Shown: positions 1,260 to 9,631, numbered from the stretch's first letter. The stretch: 9,631 nt of DNA from a virus (IMGVR_UViG_2778261515_000017:1-9631); one strand, 5' to 3'. Notes: generated by a model from the sequence alone, not told the origin. Numbers and translations are program-made.

Positions 1260-1919
1260 CTATCCTTCCTGGACTTTGGTAAGCGTCAGATTTCCGCAGA
1301 ACACTGCGCCGGTGTCGATGTACATCTGGTTTGCATACACCAGTGGGTGATGTGCTGGCGTATGACCGAAGATGAACAAATCGGCACCGGTTATCTCCGA
1401 GACAATACCGTCCTGCGCGCCGCTAACCCGCTCACGATTCCATATCACCATTTCTTCCGGTACTGGCTTATCGAATGCGTATTCGTTGTGCGGGTAGTCT
1501 GCGTGGCAGATGACGACCTTCTTATTGCCGGTAACCAGTTCGATAATCATCGGGAGGTTGGTAATCTTTGGCAGAAGGTATTTGAGTTTCACATCCTGCT
1601 CAGAATCAAGTTGGTGCCACCATCCACCGCCGTTTGACATCCAATGTCCGAAACTTCCGCCGTTGACCAGTGCATCCAGCATCATCTGCTCATGGTTGCC
1701 ACGAACAGCTCGGAACCACGGCATAGTAATCAAATCCAGGCATTCGACGTTTTCAGCGCCGCGGTCAACAAGGTCACCAACGGAAATAAGCAAATCGCGC
1801 GCCGGGTCGAATGAAACTTTGTCGAGTTCGTTCATCAGCAGCGTGTAGCACCCATGCAGATCGCCGACGACGAAGATATTGCACCAGTCAGCGCCATTGA
1901 TGCGTTGATATAGGTTCAT
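1260..1919 (-). CDS. Ser/Thr protein phosphatase, lambda PPase (NinI)-like metallophosphoesterase
   Basis: Translation from the internal ATG ([26 protein letters not shown]...GDLVDRG...GNHE...FIFGHTP...) carries the calcineurin-like GDxHG/GDxxDRG/GNHE motifs and is near-collinear with lambda PPase as I recall it. SD GGGAG 8 nt upstream of the ATG at 1919. The 40-codon upstream extension of the track ORF overlaps the methylase gene and is rejected. Confidence 0.85.
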
Positions 1920-2566
1920 GCTACACGCTCCCGCCCCTGGTTGTCTGTTGGTGACAGCGGAGCATTGCTGAATGCATTTGTTAATCCGCCAATATCCAAC
2001 GCGTATCCAGGATGTAGTTGCACTGCCGGGTCTTCGCACTGATTACCCCAAACATCGAAGCCATGAGACGACTGGCGGGCGAACAGTTCAATGCGAGAAA
2101 CATCGCCTAACAATTGCACAAGTTTTTCACGAACGATATCTGGTTTTCTTGAATGCTCAAGCCGCGGTGCGGTAAATGACTGAACGATCCCTGCATTAAT
2201 GCGCGTAGGTAGTTTTCCCTTTACCGCAAACAGGCAATCTTCACTATTGGCGCGAGTCATGTGTCCCATACCCATAACCAGTTTATCTGGTTGTCGGCTA
2301 CCACATTTTATCCACGTGAAGCCCTTCATCGTCATCAGACGAAATCCCCAGGCTTCAACAACTTTTAGTGCTTCGAGTGGTTGTGTTGGCACCCACCACA
2401 TGGCCAACAGACAGTTTTCAGCGGTCAAATCCCACACAGGAAGGCGGCAGATATCCAGCACACTCATAACAGGATATTTAAAGCCGGCACCGCGATTACC
2501 ATCTGCGGCTTTGTCCCGGTATACCCAGGGTGGATCTGCATAGATTAGTGTGTATTTCTTAGTCAT
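1916..2566 (-). CDS. MT-A70-family N6-adenine DNA methyltransferase (DPPW motif)
   Basis: [14 protein letters not shown]...; the DPPW catalytic motif is characteristic of the MT-A70 family. ATG at 2566 preceded by a G-rich SD; the GTG at 2578 is an alternative start. Its TGA stop overlaps the phosphatase ATG (ATGA). Confidence 0.75.
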
Positions 2567-3265: not shown

Positions 3266-4207
3266 TTACATAGATGTTTCGTTTAATTCTTCCCGACGAA
3301 CGCTGTAAACGTCGGTGGCTTTTGCCAGCAGTTCGTCATCATCTGAAAGTTTTTGTGCAATGTATTTGTAAGCCTTATCCAGTTCGGAGACAGTGCTGTA
3401 ATTCATCGCTGCGCTGGTAAAGGCCATCAGCATTTCTTCTGGATCACGGCTATCCGCTTTACGCGTTTGCTCATCAGGCTTTTTCACTGTTTTAGCGTTG
3501 ATCAGACTATTAATTCCCGCAGCCGTAGTTGTTTGCGGAGTAATGTCTCGCTCAACGCGCGGTGCCGTTTCCTGTAATTCGTCAGGTGTATAGACGCCCA
3601 TGATTACGTCAGGACAGTGCAAGCGAGACCAGCGTTTTGTCGCAAGGTATGCGAGTTGTTGTTTCGGATCGCTGGCCCAAAGTGTGGAGTTTCTTACCTG
3701 TGCCTGAGACAGCATTAACTCGAGCACTCGAGGTTGATCCTCTCCCTTCATGGTTGCCCATACGCGAACACCGCAGCCTTCTTCGTCTTTTATAGTCCAG
3801 CCTGGTGCGATATACGGATTGCCGTTTTTGGATGTTTTCTCAACAAACTTACCGATCACGCGTTCCCACGGCCCGAACCACTCGTAGTTGATGCGATCTT
3901 TTGTTGGCGACATTGTTGAGATAACTGCGTTTACTAATTGGGCTTCATAACCTAGCGTGCCGTTCACAACATGGGTTTTCTGAGCCACGGCAAACGGGTT
4001 CATTCCCCACTGCGCAGCCTGCATTGCCACGGCCATGCAATCAGCTGGTTTCCCGGCGAGGTGCGCCGGTACCGTTACGCGGCTTTGCGCCATTACCTCG
4101 GCGAATTTCATCAGTTGGTTCAAGCCGTCTGGGCTGAAAATAGTTGCAGCAGTGCCAGCGATTGCTGTGTCTACTGGTGCGTTGATGTTTGCGATGTTGT
4201 TGCTCAT
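3266..4207 (-). CDS. recT: RecT/Redbeta-family single-strand annealing protein
   Basis: 313 aa. Shares an ERDITP segment with lambda Bet as I recall it, and sits immediately downstream of an exonuclease gene with a 4-nt ATGA start/stop overlap, the typical exo-SSAP pair. The family call has not been checked by search. Confidence 0.72.
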   Translation of the reverse strand: MSNNIANINAPVDTAIAGTAATIFSPDGLNQLMKFAEVMAQSRVTVPAHLAGKPADCMAVAMQAAQWGMNPFAVAQKTHVVNGTLGYEAQLVNAVISTMSPTKDRINYEWFGPWERVIGKFVEKTSKNGNPYIAPGWTIKDEEGCGVRVWATMKGEDQPRVLELMLSQAQVRNSTLWASDPKQQLAYLATKRWSRLHCPDVIMGVYTPDELQETAPRVERDITPQTTTAAGINSLINAKTVKKPDEQTRKADSRDPEEMLMAFTSAAMNYSTVSELDKAYKYIAQKLSDDDELLAKATDVYSVRREELNETSM

Positions 4208-5025
4208 ATGTACATATCCTGTTTACGTGCCCAGTCAGGGCGTTTAATAATTTCCACGCCACCCCATTCATCATTGATGCGGCATTCGTGATAGGTATTC
4301 AGATCCCGGCGGAACAGAGCGTGCCCGGTATCGACATCCTTCGCATCCAGCTCGAACACGCGTACCGGATACCGACCACAATCAATGCTTTCGCTCACGG
4401 CAAGAAAGAAAAAACCATGCGGCTGACCAGTAACCCTCATTGCGCCTTCACGGTACATTGCGTCCTGCACGTGGTAGCGGAATTCCTCGATGTGGCGAGC
4501 AAAACGATCCATATCTGCAACCTTTTTCACGTCGACGATTACGTTGTGCTCGTTCAGCCATTTGTCTGGACGAATTCGGCACAACTCACCCGTCTCTTCA
4601 TCGTTCCAGTACATTGATGCTTCGCAGTAACCAGGTGCTTCCAGCATCCAGCGTGCCGCCGGGTGAGCCATTGCGCTATCACGCATCAGCTCCAGTTTTC
4701 GCCACTGCTCTGCATCAAGTACCGAAATCCCCATATCCGCTACATCACGAATAAATGCCTCTTCGTCAGCTTTACCTTGTTTTGTCCGACGATCGAATTT
4801 CGGTGAAACGATGAAGCGTTTGTCAAACTCTCTAGGTTCCAGAAGCAGACAGTGCAGAGCAGTACCCATATCCAGTGCAGACTTCTTCTCTTCGTCTTCC
4901 GGAGCAGCCTTCACCCATTTCAGAAGGGCAGGGTTCTTAGCCACCATATCTAGCTGCGACTTACTCACGCCGTCACCGGCGTGGTAGTCCTCGTTGCTGA
5001 TATCGAAATAAATTCCCGGATTCAT
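4204..5025 (-). CDS. RecE-like PD-(D/E)XK exonuclease (nuclease domain only, DUF3799-like)
   Basis: 273 aa. N-terminal GIYFDISNEDYHAGDGVSKSQL resembles the start of the RecE catalytic domain. ...IRPDKW... and ...VIVDVKKV... fit D ... (D/E)xK nuclease motifs. SD GAGGG 7 nt upstream. ATGA overlaps with both neighbouring genes. Confidence 0.7.
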   Translation of the reverse strand: MNPGIYFDISNEDYHAGDGVSKSQLDMVAKNPALLKWVKAAPEDEEKKSALDMGTALHCLLLEPREFDKRFIVSPKFDRRTKQGKADEEAFIRDVADMGISVLDAEQWRKLELMRDSAMAHPAARWMLEAPGYCEASMYWNDEETGELCRIRPDKWLNEHNVIVDVKKVADMDRFARHIEEFRYHVQDAMYREGAMRVTGQPHGFFFLAVSESIDCGRYPVRVFELDAKDVDTGHALFRRDLNTYHECRINDEWGGVEIIKRPDWARKQDMYI

Positions 5026-5495: not shown

Positions 5496-5572
5496 TTACC
5501 GTTGAGGTAATAATTATGCGTATATGGTTTGATGTCAATAGATATGAGTTAAAAAAATTACCCGTTAGGTAA
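5496..5572 (-). promoter_or_regulatory. pL-type promoter flanked by two operator palindromes (OL region)
   Basis: Operators TTACCGTTGAGGTAA (5496-5510) and TTACCCGTTAGGTAA (5558-5572), centres 62 bp apart. On the - strand, a perfect -35 TTGACA (complement of 5533-5538), 17-nt spacer, -10 AATTAT (complement of 5510-5515) whose last base is the first base of the downstream operator. Predicted TSS near 5503. Confidence 0.55.
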
Positions 5573-5582
5573 TCGAATAGGC

Positions 5583-5609
5583 AATAAAAAAGCCGCCATA
5601 AGGCGGCTT
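5583..5609 (-). terminator. Rho-independent terminator downstream of the repressor gene (tImm-like)
   Basis: 8-bp GC-rich stem AAGCCGCC/GGCGGCTT (5590-5597 with 5602-5609), 4-nt loop, followed on the - strand by a U-tract (complement of the A-run 5583-5589). No T-tract follows on the + strand, so it is unidirectional. Confidence 0.7.
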
Positions 5610-5629: not shown

Positions 5630-6214
5630 TTATTGTTTGTTTTTTTCGTTCTGGTTGATGACAAATTCAATGTAACTTTCGATCTTTGCTTTCTCGGTTT
5701 CGGGTAACAATGCGTAGCGCGAGCGGTCATAGTTGATAGTCGCGGGGTCGTGCGGGTGAATCAGTAATTCATAGCCGTGACGCCCGAATGCGGATGCAAC
5801 ATTCTCCAGGGTGGAAATGGAAACGCTAACCTCATTGTTTAACAGGCGGCTGATTGTCACCTGGGCGACGCCGGATGCGCGGTGAAGTTTTCCCTGAGTT
5901 GAAAGGTCGCGGCTTTCGCTCATCCAGCGTTCCAGGTTGTGAGCCGCCAGCTGACCAATGTCGCTTGGGCCGACAGGCTGAAAACCTTCCTGAGAAAGCG
6001 AGCGATCGATATCAAGCCAGTTACGGGGTTTATTGGCGGCAGCTTCAATTTTTCGCGCAACCTGGTCGCCGATAACCTTCTTGCCAAGAGCCCAGCGGTT
6101 TACCAGATTTGCCTGAGTTCCAAGTTTTTCTGCCATCCGCGTCTGAACACCATTGAATTCACGGTCGATCAAGTCGTTGAGATTTTGCCTGCGGACGTCC
6201 TGGATACTTTTCAT
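5630..6214 (-). CDS. Prophage repressor at the cI position: dual-HTH protein (CII-like N-terminal HTH plus XRE-type HTH), with no LexA/S24 peptidase domain evident
   Basis: 194 aa. ...TRMAEKLGTQANLVNRWA... resembles the lambda CII HTH; ...GKLHRASGVAQVTISRLLNNEVSVSISTLENVASAFG... is XRE-like. Divergent from the Cro-like gene across an operator-rich region and followed by a strong terminator, which is the lambda immunity-region topology. Weak or absent SD, possibly leaderless like cI from pRM. Confidence 0.65.
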   Translation of the reverse strand: MKSIQDVRRQNLNDLIDREFNGVQTRMAEKLGTQANLVNRWALGKKVIGDQVARKIEAAANKPRNWLDIDRSLSQEGFQPVGPSDIGQLAAHNLERWMSESRDLSTQGKLHRASGVAQVTISRLLNNEVSVSISTLENVASAFGRHGYELLIHPHDPATINYDRSRYALLPETEKAKIESYIEFVINQNEKNKQ

Positions 6215-6269: not shown

Positions 6270-6343
6270 TTACCCAACAGGTAAATGCACCCCATAGGTA
6301 ACTATCCTTGATTTTTGTTACCTTATGGGTGAATATTTATTAT
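6270..6343. promoter_or_regulatory. Divergent OR-type operator region between the repressor and Cro-like genes, with a pR-type promoter
   Basis: Operators TTACCCAACAGGTAA (6270-6284), degenerate GCACCCCATAGGTAA (6287-6301) and TTACCTTATGGGTGA (6318-6332). Rightward promoter candidates: -35 TTGTTA (6315-6320), 17 nt, -10 TATTAT (6338-6343); or -35 TTGATT (6308-6313), 17 nt, -10 GAATAT (6331-6336). Either overlaps the 6318-6332 operator. No convincing leftward (pRM-type) hexamers found. Confidence 0.5.
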
Positions 6344-6368: not shown

Positions 6369-6599
6369 ATGAGCGATAACGGACATTTCGATTTCAAAAA
6401 GCACTGGCTTGCACTTACTCCGGATGAGCGTGAAGCCTTCGCACAGGAAGCCGGAACGACGAGTCACTATATCCATACTCACTTAACAGGTAAGCGCAAA
6501 ATGCCAGGTAAAGTATTGATGAATGGGCTTTTTAAAGCCTGTAAAACAAGACAATGGCTGCGCTCAAAAGCAGAACTGGCATACTTCTTCTACTCATGA
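6369..6599 (+). CDS. Cro-like small HTH regulator (first gene of the rightward operon)
   Basis: 76 aa. HTH-like segment FAQEAGTTSHYIHTHLTGKRKMPGKVLMNGLFKAC. Divergent from the repressor gene; its promoter overlaps an operator palindrome. Confidence 0.55.
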   Translation: MSDNGHFDFKKHWLALTPDEREAFAQEAGTTSHYIHTHLTGKRKMPGKVLMNGLFKACKTRQWLRSKAELAYFFYS

Positions 6600-6620: not shown

Positions 6621-6645
6621 AGACCGCCATCCGGCGGTCTTTTCA
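6621..6645 (+). terminator. Rho-independent terminator after the Cro-like gene (tR1-like)
   Basis: Stem AGACCGCC (6621-6628) / GGCGGTCT (6633-6640), loop ATCC, followed by TTTTC. Confidence 0.5.
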
Positions 6646-6749
6646 TATCTATTCGTACCTCAAAGGTAATAAAAAACCAAATATGGTTGATCTTTTTTTT
6701 GTGTCAGCACAAAATAACCGTAATCCCAATACTAATAACAGGGCTTACC

Positions 6750-6965: not shown

Positions 6966-7799
6966 ATGAGCAGACATGCAACAGATTGGGCCTGGGAGAC
7001 AGATCCAGGTAGCTCGTCATTAAAGCTCATACTGCTCTCGATGGCTGACAGAGCCGATGAATATAACCTCTGCTATCCCAGCATAGAACGCCTAGTTAAA
7101 GACACTTGCCTGAATAAAAAAACCGTACAGGCCGGGCTTATATCGCTCATGAAAATGGGGCTTATTTCAGATACCGGAGAGAGAAAGGGAGCGACGAAAA
7201 GAGTGCGGGTTTTCTCTCTTAATATAACCAAAAACGGGAACATTAAAGGCAACCGGGAAGGGGGTAACGATCCCAAAAACGGTAATGTTACCGAAAACGG
7301 GAATATACCCAAAAACGGGATGTTGAATGATCCCAAAAACGGGATGTTGAATGATCCCAAAAACGGGATCCAGAACCAGTCATATAACCAGTCATTTAAC
7401 CAAGAGAGGGAGAGCAGGACAAAAATCGGGGATTCCGTGCCCCATGACCCCGGCGCAAACAACGCCGTGATGAATAACTTTGTTCCTCCAGGTGGGCCAG
7501 GGCAATTAGGCAAATTTGTCATGCATGAACAATGGCAGCCATCAGATGACTTTCTTCGGAAAAGCTCATTGCAGGGAATCTACCTGGGCAGTCTGCCAAC
7601 GGCACAGGAACTTGCAGAGTTCAGAATTTACTGGATGGCTGAGGGTAAGGCATACCATCAGGCGCAGTGGGAGCAGAAGCTGGCAAGGCGCATCCAGTTC
7701 TGTAGACAGAAATCAGGTGAAGTCAGAAAGAGCCTTGACTGGCATAACACTGACTGGATAGATGAGGTGTGGGATGAAATCAACTCCAGAACTTCTTAA
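6966..7799 (+). CDS. Replication initiation protein (O-like): N-terminal winged HTH, central iteron-encoded repeat linker, C-terminal DnaT-like domain
   Basis: 277 aa. N-terminus LKLILLSMADRADEYNLCYPSIERLVKDTCLNKKTVQAGLISLMKMGLI is typical of phage replication-initiator HTH domains. The central NDPKNGML repeats are encoded by the DNA iterons. Immediately upstream of the P homolog. SD GGAG 7 nt upstream. Confidence 0.75.
   Translation: MSRHATDWAWETDPGSSSLKLILLSMADRADEYNLCYPSIERLVKDTCLNKKTVQAGLISLMKMGLISDTGERKGATKRVRVFSLNITKNGNIKGNREGGNDPKNGNVTENGNIPKNGMLNDPKNGMLNDPKNGIQNQSYNQSFNQERESRTKIGDSVPHDPGANNAVMNNFVPPGGPGQLGKFVMHEQWQPSDDFLRKSSLQGIYLGSLPTAQELAEFRIYWMAEGKAYHQAQWEQKLARRIQFCRQKSGEVRKSLDWHNTDWIDEVWDEINSRTS
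7228..7405. repeat. Origin-of-replication iterons inside the O-like gene, plus downstream short direct repeats
   Basis: Six copies of the core CC(A/G)AAAACGG at about 7229, 7273, 7291, 7308, 7332 and 7356. The last three are spaced exactly 24 bp apart and form the palindrome ATCCC-AAAAAC-GGGAT, resembling lambda ori iterons. Followed by AACCAGTCAT direct repeats at 7374-7383 and 7386-7395. Four GATC sites fall within 7269-7370. Confidence 0.65.
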
Positions 7800-8593: not shown

Positions 8594-8670
8594 TTACCTA
8601 TTGGGTAATAAAATATTCTAAACTCTATTGATTTCGTGTCTTATGTGGTTTTTAATTACCTCAAGGGTAA
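8594..8670 (+). promoter_or_regulatory. Third operator-flanked promoter (P3) upstream of the DUF1064-like gene; same geometry as the pL-type cassette
   Basis: Operators TTACCTATTGGGTAA (8594-8608) and TTACCTCAAGGGTAA (8656-8670), centres 62 bp apart. -35 TTGATT (8628-8633), 17-nt spacer, -10 TTTAAT (8651-8656) ending on the first T of the downstream operator. Gap from upstream operator to -35 is 19 nt, as in the pL-type cassette. Confidence 0.5.
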
Positions 8671-9082: not shown

Positions 9083-9631
9083 ATGGAAAGTATGGCTGAA
9101 GGTACGATCAAAGATTTAGTGGCATCAGGACATGCGTTAGCTGACGACATGACAGGTGCACCATCCGTGCTTGTTCGCTGTTTGGCAACGCAACTGGAAG
9201 TACAACTGGTGCGTGCTAATGCGCTGGCCGAAGACCGCATCACCACCGAACACTGTCAGGCGCTGGCGCTGGAGAACGACACCGCGCGTCAGGTGCAGGT
9301 GTTTGAAGCCGCCTGTCAGTCGGGATGGGGCGGTAAACCGGAAGTACAGACCATTCGTCGTCTGGTGACCGAAAGTGAAGTGGCGGTGGCGGGGAACAGT
9401 AAATTCCGCTTCGTGGGGGCTGATGCCTTCTCGCCAGACGAACTGCGCACCGATTTGTTCAGCGATGACGGGGACGGTTATGTCGACCGCGTGGCGCTCG
9501 ATGCCGCCCTGCTGGAAAAACTCCAGGCTGTCGCTGAACACCTTCGGGAAGCCGAAGGCTGGGAATGGTGCGCCGGACGCATGGAGCCTGTCGGTGAGTG
9601 CCGTGAGGATGCCGGAACATACCGCTGTCTG
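9083..9631 (+). CDS. Unknown acidic protein, 3'-truncated by the window edge (at least 183 codons with no stop); GC-rich relative to the rest of the window
   Basis: ATG 9083 with SD GAGGG 5 nt upstream; the frame stays open to the window end. Translation MESMAEGTIKDLVASGHALADD... is protein-like, whereas the overlapping minus-strand track ORFs look like GC-driven artefacts. No recognisable family. Confidence 0.45.
   Translation, partial: MESMAEGTIKDLVASGHALADDMTGAPSVLVRCLATQLEVQLVRANALAEDRITTEHCQALALENDTARQVQVFEAACQSGWGGKPEVQTIRRLVTESEVAVAGNSKFRFVGADAFSPDELRTDLFSDDGDGYVDRVALDAALLEKLQAVAEHLREAEGWEWCAGRMEPVGECREDAGTYRCL

Follow-up and report, generated by a model that had tools for sequence, protein, structure and literature searches.

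How does a prophage respond to DNA damage when the repressor that silences it carries nothing resembling the self-cleavage module of LexA? The question is raised by an open reading frame within a 9,631-nt stretch of viral DNA, hereafter called the window. The window matches E. coli rl0044 (NZ_CP121356.1) with 99.9% identity and forms the left arm of a prophage of approximately 39 kb located between guaA and yfgI in that strain. At least 80% of the window is contained in 345 of 5,426 complete genomes. An earlier sequence-only reading had placed an immunity repressor with two helix-turn-helix (HTH) domains at the cI position. The surroundings of the reading frame are as follows.

5630..6214, minus strand: rep, ATG start, 194 aa, read here as an immunity repressor of the SPC32H Rep type with no cleavage domain
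6369..6599, plus strand: cro-like gene, 76 aa, divergent from rep, matching phrog_35 'transcriptional repressor' (E = 9.5e-13)
5590..5609, minus strand: intrinsic terminator-like hairpin downstream of rep, with an 8-bp stem containing six GC pairs, followed by a T run
6621-6640: terminator after the cro-like gene

Since rep is divergent from the cro-like gene, it occupies the cI position as had been claimed. The phiV10 record has a terminator annotated at the position equivalent to the rep hairpin, and the DNA of the rep region is 98.9% identical to phage phiV10. Rep shares 100% identity with phiV10 gp40, with the ORF21 repressor of vB_EcoP_ZX5, and with the proteins of roughly twelve further E. 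coli Uetakevirus records. The annotation of gp40 describes 'two helix-turn-helix motifs ... similar to putative repressor epsilon15p38', and the RefSeq label of the gene is 'helix-turn-helix domain-containing protein'. In the ZX5 study, free phage was abolished when ORF21 was overexpressed, and transcripts of the holin and endolysin genes fell by over 99.9%. The same study reported a rise in the titre of ZX5, from 1e7 to 1e9 PFU/mL, upon treatment with mitomycin C; with a Rep identical to the one described here, this response indicates SOS inducibility despite a repressor without a cleavage domain. The 5630..6214 reading frame very probably encodes Rep, the lysogeny repressor of a phiV10/epsilon15-like prophage (genus Uetakevirus) that resides beside guaA in E. 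coli and is SOS-induced via a LexA-controlled antirepressor, Ant.

Rep may be considered in terms of three regions, all on the minus strand.

5999..6214, minus strand: Rep residues 1-72, N-terminal Cro/YdaS-like HTH and predicted operator reader (YdaS_toxin match, residues 21-61)
5750..5965, minus strand: Rep residues 84-155, XRE-type HTH fold, the counterpart of the middle dimerisation domain (MDD) of SPC32H Rep (Pfam HTH_3; 5d4z match)
5633..5749, minus strand: Rep residues 156-194, C-terminal arm, the counterpart of the SPC32H Rep CAD, associated with tetramerisation and Ant binding (51% identity, residues 156-190)

Both of the HTH domains that had been proposed were recovered by profile searches. 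Residues 106-147 match Pfam HTH_3 (E = 1.2e-9, 38.5 bits against a cut-off of 23) and HTH_26 (9.6e-6), and residues 21-61 match a YdaS_toxin/Cro-type HTH (E = 3.1e-4) with 21 bits, under the cut-off of 30. The description of the first HTH as CII-like did not hold. A BLASTP comparison with lambda CII gave E = 1.9 with the alignment confined to the ...RW helix, and there is no Phage_CII match in Pfam. Membership in the lambda CII family was rejected on both counts, and the 'CII-like' label is a resemblance of motif only. The names HigA, TreR, and RstR were also rejected for Rep, all of the NCBIfam matches being far under their cut-offs. An hhalign comparison of sub-alignments for the N-terminal and middle domains placed the two HTHs in register, but with only 16% probability and 15% identity for a putative internal duplication.

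The two HTH domains differ in character. The N-terminal domain has the highest conservation among the domains (0.80 column majority) and a net charge of +5, while the middle XRE-like domain is slightly acidic with a net charge of -1. In an alignment of 35 Rep homologues, N36, R40, and W41 from the NLVNRW stretch of the putative N-terminal recognition helix are invariant, as are Q118 and R123 from the putative recognition helix of the middle HTH. The C-terminal arm has three invariant residues (Y162, L170, and F184), and I160, D163, R164, and P171 are nearly so.

An AlphaFold2 model of the Rep monomer, a check that the sequence-only reading had proposed for the 194-aa protein, was built on this 35-sequence alignment. 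The model is all-helical (mean pLDDT = 75.8), with a five-helix bundle as the middle domain and low confidence for the C-terminal arm (pLDDT = 50–72). When the model was searched against the PDB with Foldseek, 5d50 and 5d4z were the best matches and only XRE-family HTH proteins followed. No S24/LexA C-terminal fold was present among the best 50 matches, Pfam returned no Peptidase_S24 match to Rep at E<=1, and neither an Ala-Gly nor a Cys-Gly dipeptide occurs anywhere in the 194 residues. The absence of an autocleavage module that had been noted for this protein is thus confirmed, and membership among the LexA/CI-type S24 repressors was rejected. At the level of sequence and modeled fold, Rep is shown to carry no S24 module and would be unable to cleave itself.

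A relative of known structure is the repressor of Salmonella phage SPC32H. In a phmmer search of the PDB, Rep residues 1-190 matched residues 2-197 of 5d50_A, 'Repressor' (E = 4e-42), and a BLASTP alignment of the two proteins gave 42% identity over 196 columns, or 98% of the protein (E = 2e-53). Rep also matches 5D4Z, a C-terminal fragment (92-198) of SPC32H Rep solved without Ant. Identity is uneven along the chain: the N-terminal domain (53%) and the C-terminal arm (51%) are better kept than the middle domain (31%). At the level of the monomer model, the helices and domain boundaries of the two repressors agree. Judged by its sequence, Rep belongs to the Rep family of SPC32H and epsilon15, and all of the features that define this family at sequence level were found. 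The crystal structure 5D50 is of SPC32H Rep in complex with the antirepressor Ant. As summarized in the literature, SPC32H Rep binds DNA as a tetramer, which a tetrameric Ant takes apart into dimers, and secondary sources describe the inactivation of SPC32H Rep as proceeding through Ant and not through cleavage. PMC9986798 ascribes to SPC32H Rep an N-terminal part that binds DNA, a dimerisation domain in the middle, and a C-terminal domain for tetramerisation and Ant binding.

On this reading, a lysogen whose repressor is unable to cleave itself would have to be induced through an antirepressor. Such a protein had been anticipated outside of the window, in which no LexA box had been seen, and both statements agree with the present results. 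The window contains no exact LexA box (CTGT-N8-ACAG), and its four one-mismatch sites compare with 3.1 expected by chance. A tblastn search of the window identified no Ant-like coding sequence (best E = 5.3). The rest of the prophage, where a search for a LexA-controlled antirepressor had been advised, contains one.

L002 38256..38513, minus strand: ant, unannotated, 85 aa, matching 5D50 chain E 'Anti-repressor protein' (E = 5.5e-47)

The ant gene is approximately 29 kb from rep, within the source prophage and outside of the window. A LexA box, CTGTATATTTATACAG, is located 37 nt upstream of the ant ATG (wider context: TACTGTATATTTATACAGTT) and is one of three exact CTGT-N8-ACAG matches in 49 kb. 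Compared to the 20-bp LexA consensus, TACTGTATATATATACAGTA, the ant box differs at two positions. The box at -37 is exact in six of the seven phages compared, phiV10, ZX5, SPC32H, epsilon15, and Tyrion among them, and the ant gene of Klebsiella phage BUCT711 has a LexA box with one mismatch. Homologues of Rep were identified in 36 enterobacterial phage records, and 35 of these also have an Ant homologue. The SPC32H Ant is described as an 86-aa protein whose gene is LexA-repressed, and reviews that cite Kim & Ryu 2013 present LexA-controlled antirepressors as the common induction route of Salmonella prophages. By analogy with SPC32H, the LexA-controlled Ant, and not self-cleavage, is most likely what inactivates Rep upon DNA damage.

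A further module that resembles P1 immI was observed immediately downstream of ant (L002 37230-38260), again outside of the window. It begins with a promoter-like element, and a Rep-type operator (L002 38210-38224) overlaps this element. In Rfam, the module matches isrK with 66 bits (gathering score 50) and C4 antisense RNA with 66 bits (gathering score 45), and the c4-a1b1 targets reach 40.9 bits, below the gathering score of 46.7; within the window, an Rfam scan returned no family at its gathering score. A 236-aa BRO-N protein is encoded after the RNA matches, and its C-terminal 77 residues (155-231) match SPC32H Ant (E = 2.2e-13). The arrangement resembles that of P1/P7 immI, and the module suggests a second, RNA-gated antirepressor in the source prophage.

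It could be argued from this module that induction proceeds mainly via the BRO-N/Ant-like protein under control of the C4 antisense RNA, leaving the small LexA-controlled Ant as an accessory. The Ant-like C-terminus and the C4 and isrK matches above gathering score just upstream both fit such a role. In addition, when the BRO-N protein of ZX5 (ORF4) was overexpressed, the titre of the prophage fell from 1e9 to 1e6 and the level of rep mRNA dropped by 75%; it is this protein that the ZX5 study calls the 'anti-repressor', with no mention of LexA, SPC32H, or a small Ant. However, the BRO-N gene is absent from SPC32H and epsilon15, the Ant-like part is split over two reading frames in phiV10, and no exact LexA box is nearby, whereas across the genus both the small ant gene and the LexA box in front of it have been kept. 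Main induction through the BRO-N protein is therefore improbable. It is conceivable, though on balance we would not expect it, that the two proteins act in succession. In this tentative scheme, phiV10-like E. coli prophages would run an undescribed two-tier antirepression in which the LexA-gated Ant serves as the trigger and the BRO-N/Ant-like protein as a subsequent lock-in. The latter, with a Rep operator over its promoter and the isrK and C4 matches in its leader, would be made only after Rep is released.

With induction most likely assigned to the small Ant, the sites at which Rep would act can be considered. The palindrome TTACC-N5-GGTAA occurs seven times in the window against 0.14 expected. 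Operators and associated promoters are arranged as follows.

5496..5572: strong leftward early promoter (TTGACA 5538..5533, 17-nt spacer, AATTAT 5515..5510) with operators 5496-5510 and 5558-5572
8594..8670: second operator pair (8594-8608 and 8656-8670) around a promoter-like TTGATT-17-TTTAAT, upstream of a DUF1064 gene
6270..6343: rep/cro intergenic operators 6270-6284, 6287-6301 (degenerate), and 6318-6332
6315-6343: rightward promoter TTGTTA-17-TATTAT, overlapped by operator 6318-6332
6655..6669: single operator-like site with one mismatch, past the cro terminator

The members of the pairs 5496/5558 and 8594/8656 are each exactly 62 bp apart. Both pairs have the same layout, namely an operator, approximately 20 bp, a -35 element, a 17-nt spacer, and a -10 element that abuts the second operator. 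The TTGATT-17-TTTAAT promoter of the second pair was read by eye and was not called by the automatic scan. At the leftward promoter, the spacing is 62 bp in phiV10, SPC32H, Tyrion, and epsilon15, and 63 bp in BUCT711. The second pair, which lies after the replication genes, is spaced by 62 bp in all six phages compared. The spacing of the pairs has been kept in six phages although their Rep proteins range from 42 to 100% identity and the central 5 bp of the operators have diverged. Between rep and cro, the operators are spaced by 17 + 31 bp in the window, close to the 17 + 30 bp of the triplets that SPC32H and epsilon15 carry there, and the overall layout recurs in phiV10, Tyrion, and BUCT711 too. 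The single site at 6655-6669 has an equal relative position in phiV10 and Tyrion.

The RefSeq record of epsilon15 annotates 17-bp ATTACC-N5-GGTAAT sites as protein_bind 'repressor'. The TTACC/GGTAA half-sites are identical among phages with Rep proteins that are only 42% identical, and the invariance of N36, R40, and W41 agrees with an invariant half-site. One candidate determinant of immunity specificity is the 5-bp operator center, which is rich in A/T in the Salmonella phages and mixed here. Two operator-like sites were observed beyond the window. The first, TTACCTTAAAGGTAT, has one mismatch and is located 57 bp upstream of int (L002 3395-3409), immediately to the left of the window; phiV10 and SPC32H have it as well, and Rep might control int. 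The second (L002 38590-38604) is a Rep-type operator in the divergent region between ant and the tailspike gene, 54 bp from the LexA box. It is found at approximately -91 from the ant start in seven of seven phages (-89 or -97 in two of them) and is annotated as repressor-binding in the epsilon15 record. Rep may thus co-regulate the ant or the tailspike promoter.

From these data, a mechanism can be proposed. The basic N-terminal HTH would read palindromic operators of 15-17 bp, (A)TTACC-N5-GGTAA(T), as suggested by the joint conservation of N36/R40/W41 and the half-site and by what the epsilon15 record annotates. As in the SPC32H homologue, the middle XRE-like domain would dimerise Rep and the C-terminal arm would tetramerise it. 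A single tetramer with two pairs of N-terminal domains could then sit on the two operators of a pair at once, along a single face of the DNA, given that 62 bp corresponds to about six helical turns. Such a tetramer would clamp the early promoters across the -35 and -10 elements and shut them. Upon DNA damage, cleavage of LexA would derepress ant, approximately 29 kb away in the prophage, if its regulation follows that of SPC32H. Ant would bind the C-terminal part of Rep as in SPC32H and convert the tetramer to dimers, and with the DNA released the lytic program would start.

The sequence-only reading had instead suggested that the two HTHs of the repressor could bridge operator pairs. The 62-bp spacing to which it referred is real, conserved in six phages, and plausibly bridged, but tetramerisation would provide the bridge and not the second HTH. 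If both HTHs of one chain bound DNA, the 62-bp pairs could be spanned without any oligomerisation. The middle domain does score well as an XRE HTH (E = 1.2e-9), Q118 and R123 in its putative recognition helix are invariant, and the conserved pairs themselves would suit a repressor of this kind. Against these points, all operator sites share one palindromic consensus with no second motif seen, so a single reader suffices. The middle domain of the SPC32H homologue is described in PMC9986798 as dimerising and the N-terminus as DNA-binding. Among the folded domains, the middle one also shows the lowest identity between the two Rep proteins (31%), yet their half-sites are identical. Direct reading by both HTHs is thus distinctly unlikely. 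Given that the middle domain is the MDD counterpart and is slightly acidic (net charge -1; N-terminal domain +5), the bridging is better explained by a tetramer, whose four N-terminal domains would contact the DNA, and by this analogy Rep tetramerisation is the more likely means of spanning 62 bp. The middle domain could still keep some DNA contact within a promoter clamp of this type.

That the reading frame instead encodes an antitoxin of the HigA/VapI kind or some general regulator of the XRE type can hardly be entertained: apart from a weak NCBIfam HigA match (E = 1.2e-3, far under cut-off) and a BP9 phage record that annotates the protein as 'antidote protein VapI', there is no adjacent toxin gene, the frame is divergent from a cro-like gene with operators around it, homology to a crystallized phage repressor is full-length, and the ZX5 overexpression phenotype fits a repressor.

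Several other features of the window were noted, some of which set this prophage apart from phiV10. A Ser/Thr protein phosphatase is encoded at 1260-2039 (minus strand) where phiV10 has a DUF1382 gene, and separate genes for RecT and a PD-(D/E)XK nuclease are present at 3266-5025 (minus strand) compared to the single fused RecE-RecT reading frame annotated in phiV10. Within the replication-initiator gene (6966..7799), tandem peptide repeats are encoded at 7290-7370 (NDPKNGMLNDPKNG...); this suggests iteron-like DNA repeats in an O-like gene, possibly a replication origin. At the right end of the window (approximately 9240-9631; L002 12666-15263), homology to phiV10 ends and a plasmid-like segment begins with a ParB/RepB pseudogene, followed by ardA outside of the window. 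This segment accounts for thousands of plasmid matches and is a mosaic insert in the early-right region of the prophage.

The protein, its role as a repressor, its two HTH motifs, and the mechanism in congeneric phages are already known from public records and the literature. As the mechanism has been established for SPC32H, nothing new in principle is added to phage biology. The gain is one of annotation: what RefSeq calls a 'helix-turn-helix domain-containing protein' is, in all likelihood, the immunity repressor in a type of prophage that is common in E. coli, and the SOS sensor of that prophage is predicted to be an unannotated 85-aa ant gene with a LexA box. For E. coli phages, no statement was found that assigns the small LexA-boxed gene as Ant. 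The 'anti-repressor' of the ZX5 paper is the BRO-N protein with an Ant-like C-terminus and not an Ant of the SPC32H type.

Among known systems, lambda CI, LexA, and P22 C2 provide the greatest contrast. They too have an N-terminal HTH at the cI position and act cooperatively on multiple operators. Rep differs in lacking the S24 fold, the Ala-Gly site, and the context of a Ser/Lys dyad, and by analogy with SPC32H it would oligomerise through an XRE-like dimer domain and a C-terminal arm. The Rco/Rap system of the Bacillus plasmid pLS20 (TetDloop), as described in PMC9986798, combines an N-terminal DNA-binding domain and a C-terminal tetramerisation module with DNA looping and relief by an anti-repressor. 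Rco has no middle dimerisation domain, and its fold link to SPC32H Rep is one known from the literature only.

SPC32H Ant is reportedly distinct in structure from the antirepressors of sipho- and myoviruses. The repressors of Gifsy-1, Gifsy-3, and Fels-2, and the Tum system of coliphage 186, share the logic by which a LexA-repressed antirepressor inactivates a non-cleavable repressor (Lemire et al. 2011; Shearwin et al. 1998). No Gifsy or 186 repressor appeared among the matches of the searches made here, and the likeness is one of logic. The comparison with Gifsy-type prophages that had been drawn for this locus therefore stands for the LexA/antirepressor logic as an analogy and not as family membership, while by homology the closest relative is the Rep-Ant pair of SPC32H/epsilon15.

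Within that family, phiV10 gp40 and ZX5 ORF21 are without any difference from the Rep of the window, although the accessory genes of these phages differ with respect to the Ser/Thr phosphatase, the separate RecT and nuclease genes, and the plasmid-like ParB/ArdA insert. The major repressor of epsilon15, gp38, is 42% identical to Rep, holds an equal position, and is itself linked to 5d50_A by HHpred in RefSeq; the phage has another host and its operator centers are A/T-rich. SPC32H (PDB 5D50, 5D4Z; Kim & Ryu 2013; Kim et al. 2016) is likewise a Uetakevirus with Rep and Ant at equal gene positions. Compared to SPC32H, the middle domain of Rep has diverged, the operator centers (5 bp) lack the A/T-richness, and the E. 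coli prophage adds the BRO-N protein with its Ant-like C-terminus behind C4/isrK-like RNAs. The two prophages share the operator half-sites, the 62-bp pairs, an Ant that is 88% identical with a LexA box likewise at -37, and a matching three-part Rep layout, for which the oligomerisation roles, like the stability and Ant binding of the E. coli orthologue, are predicted by homology.
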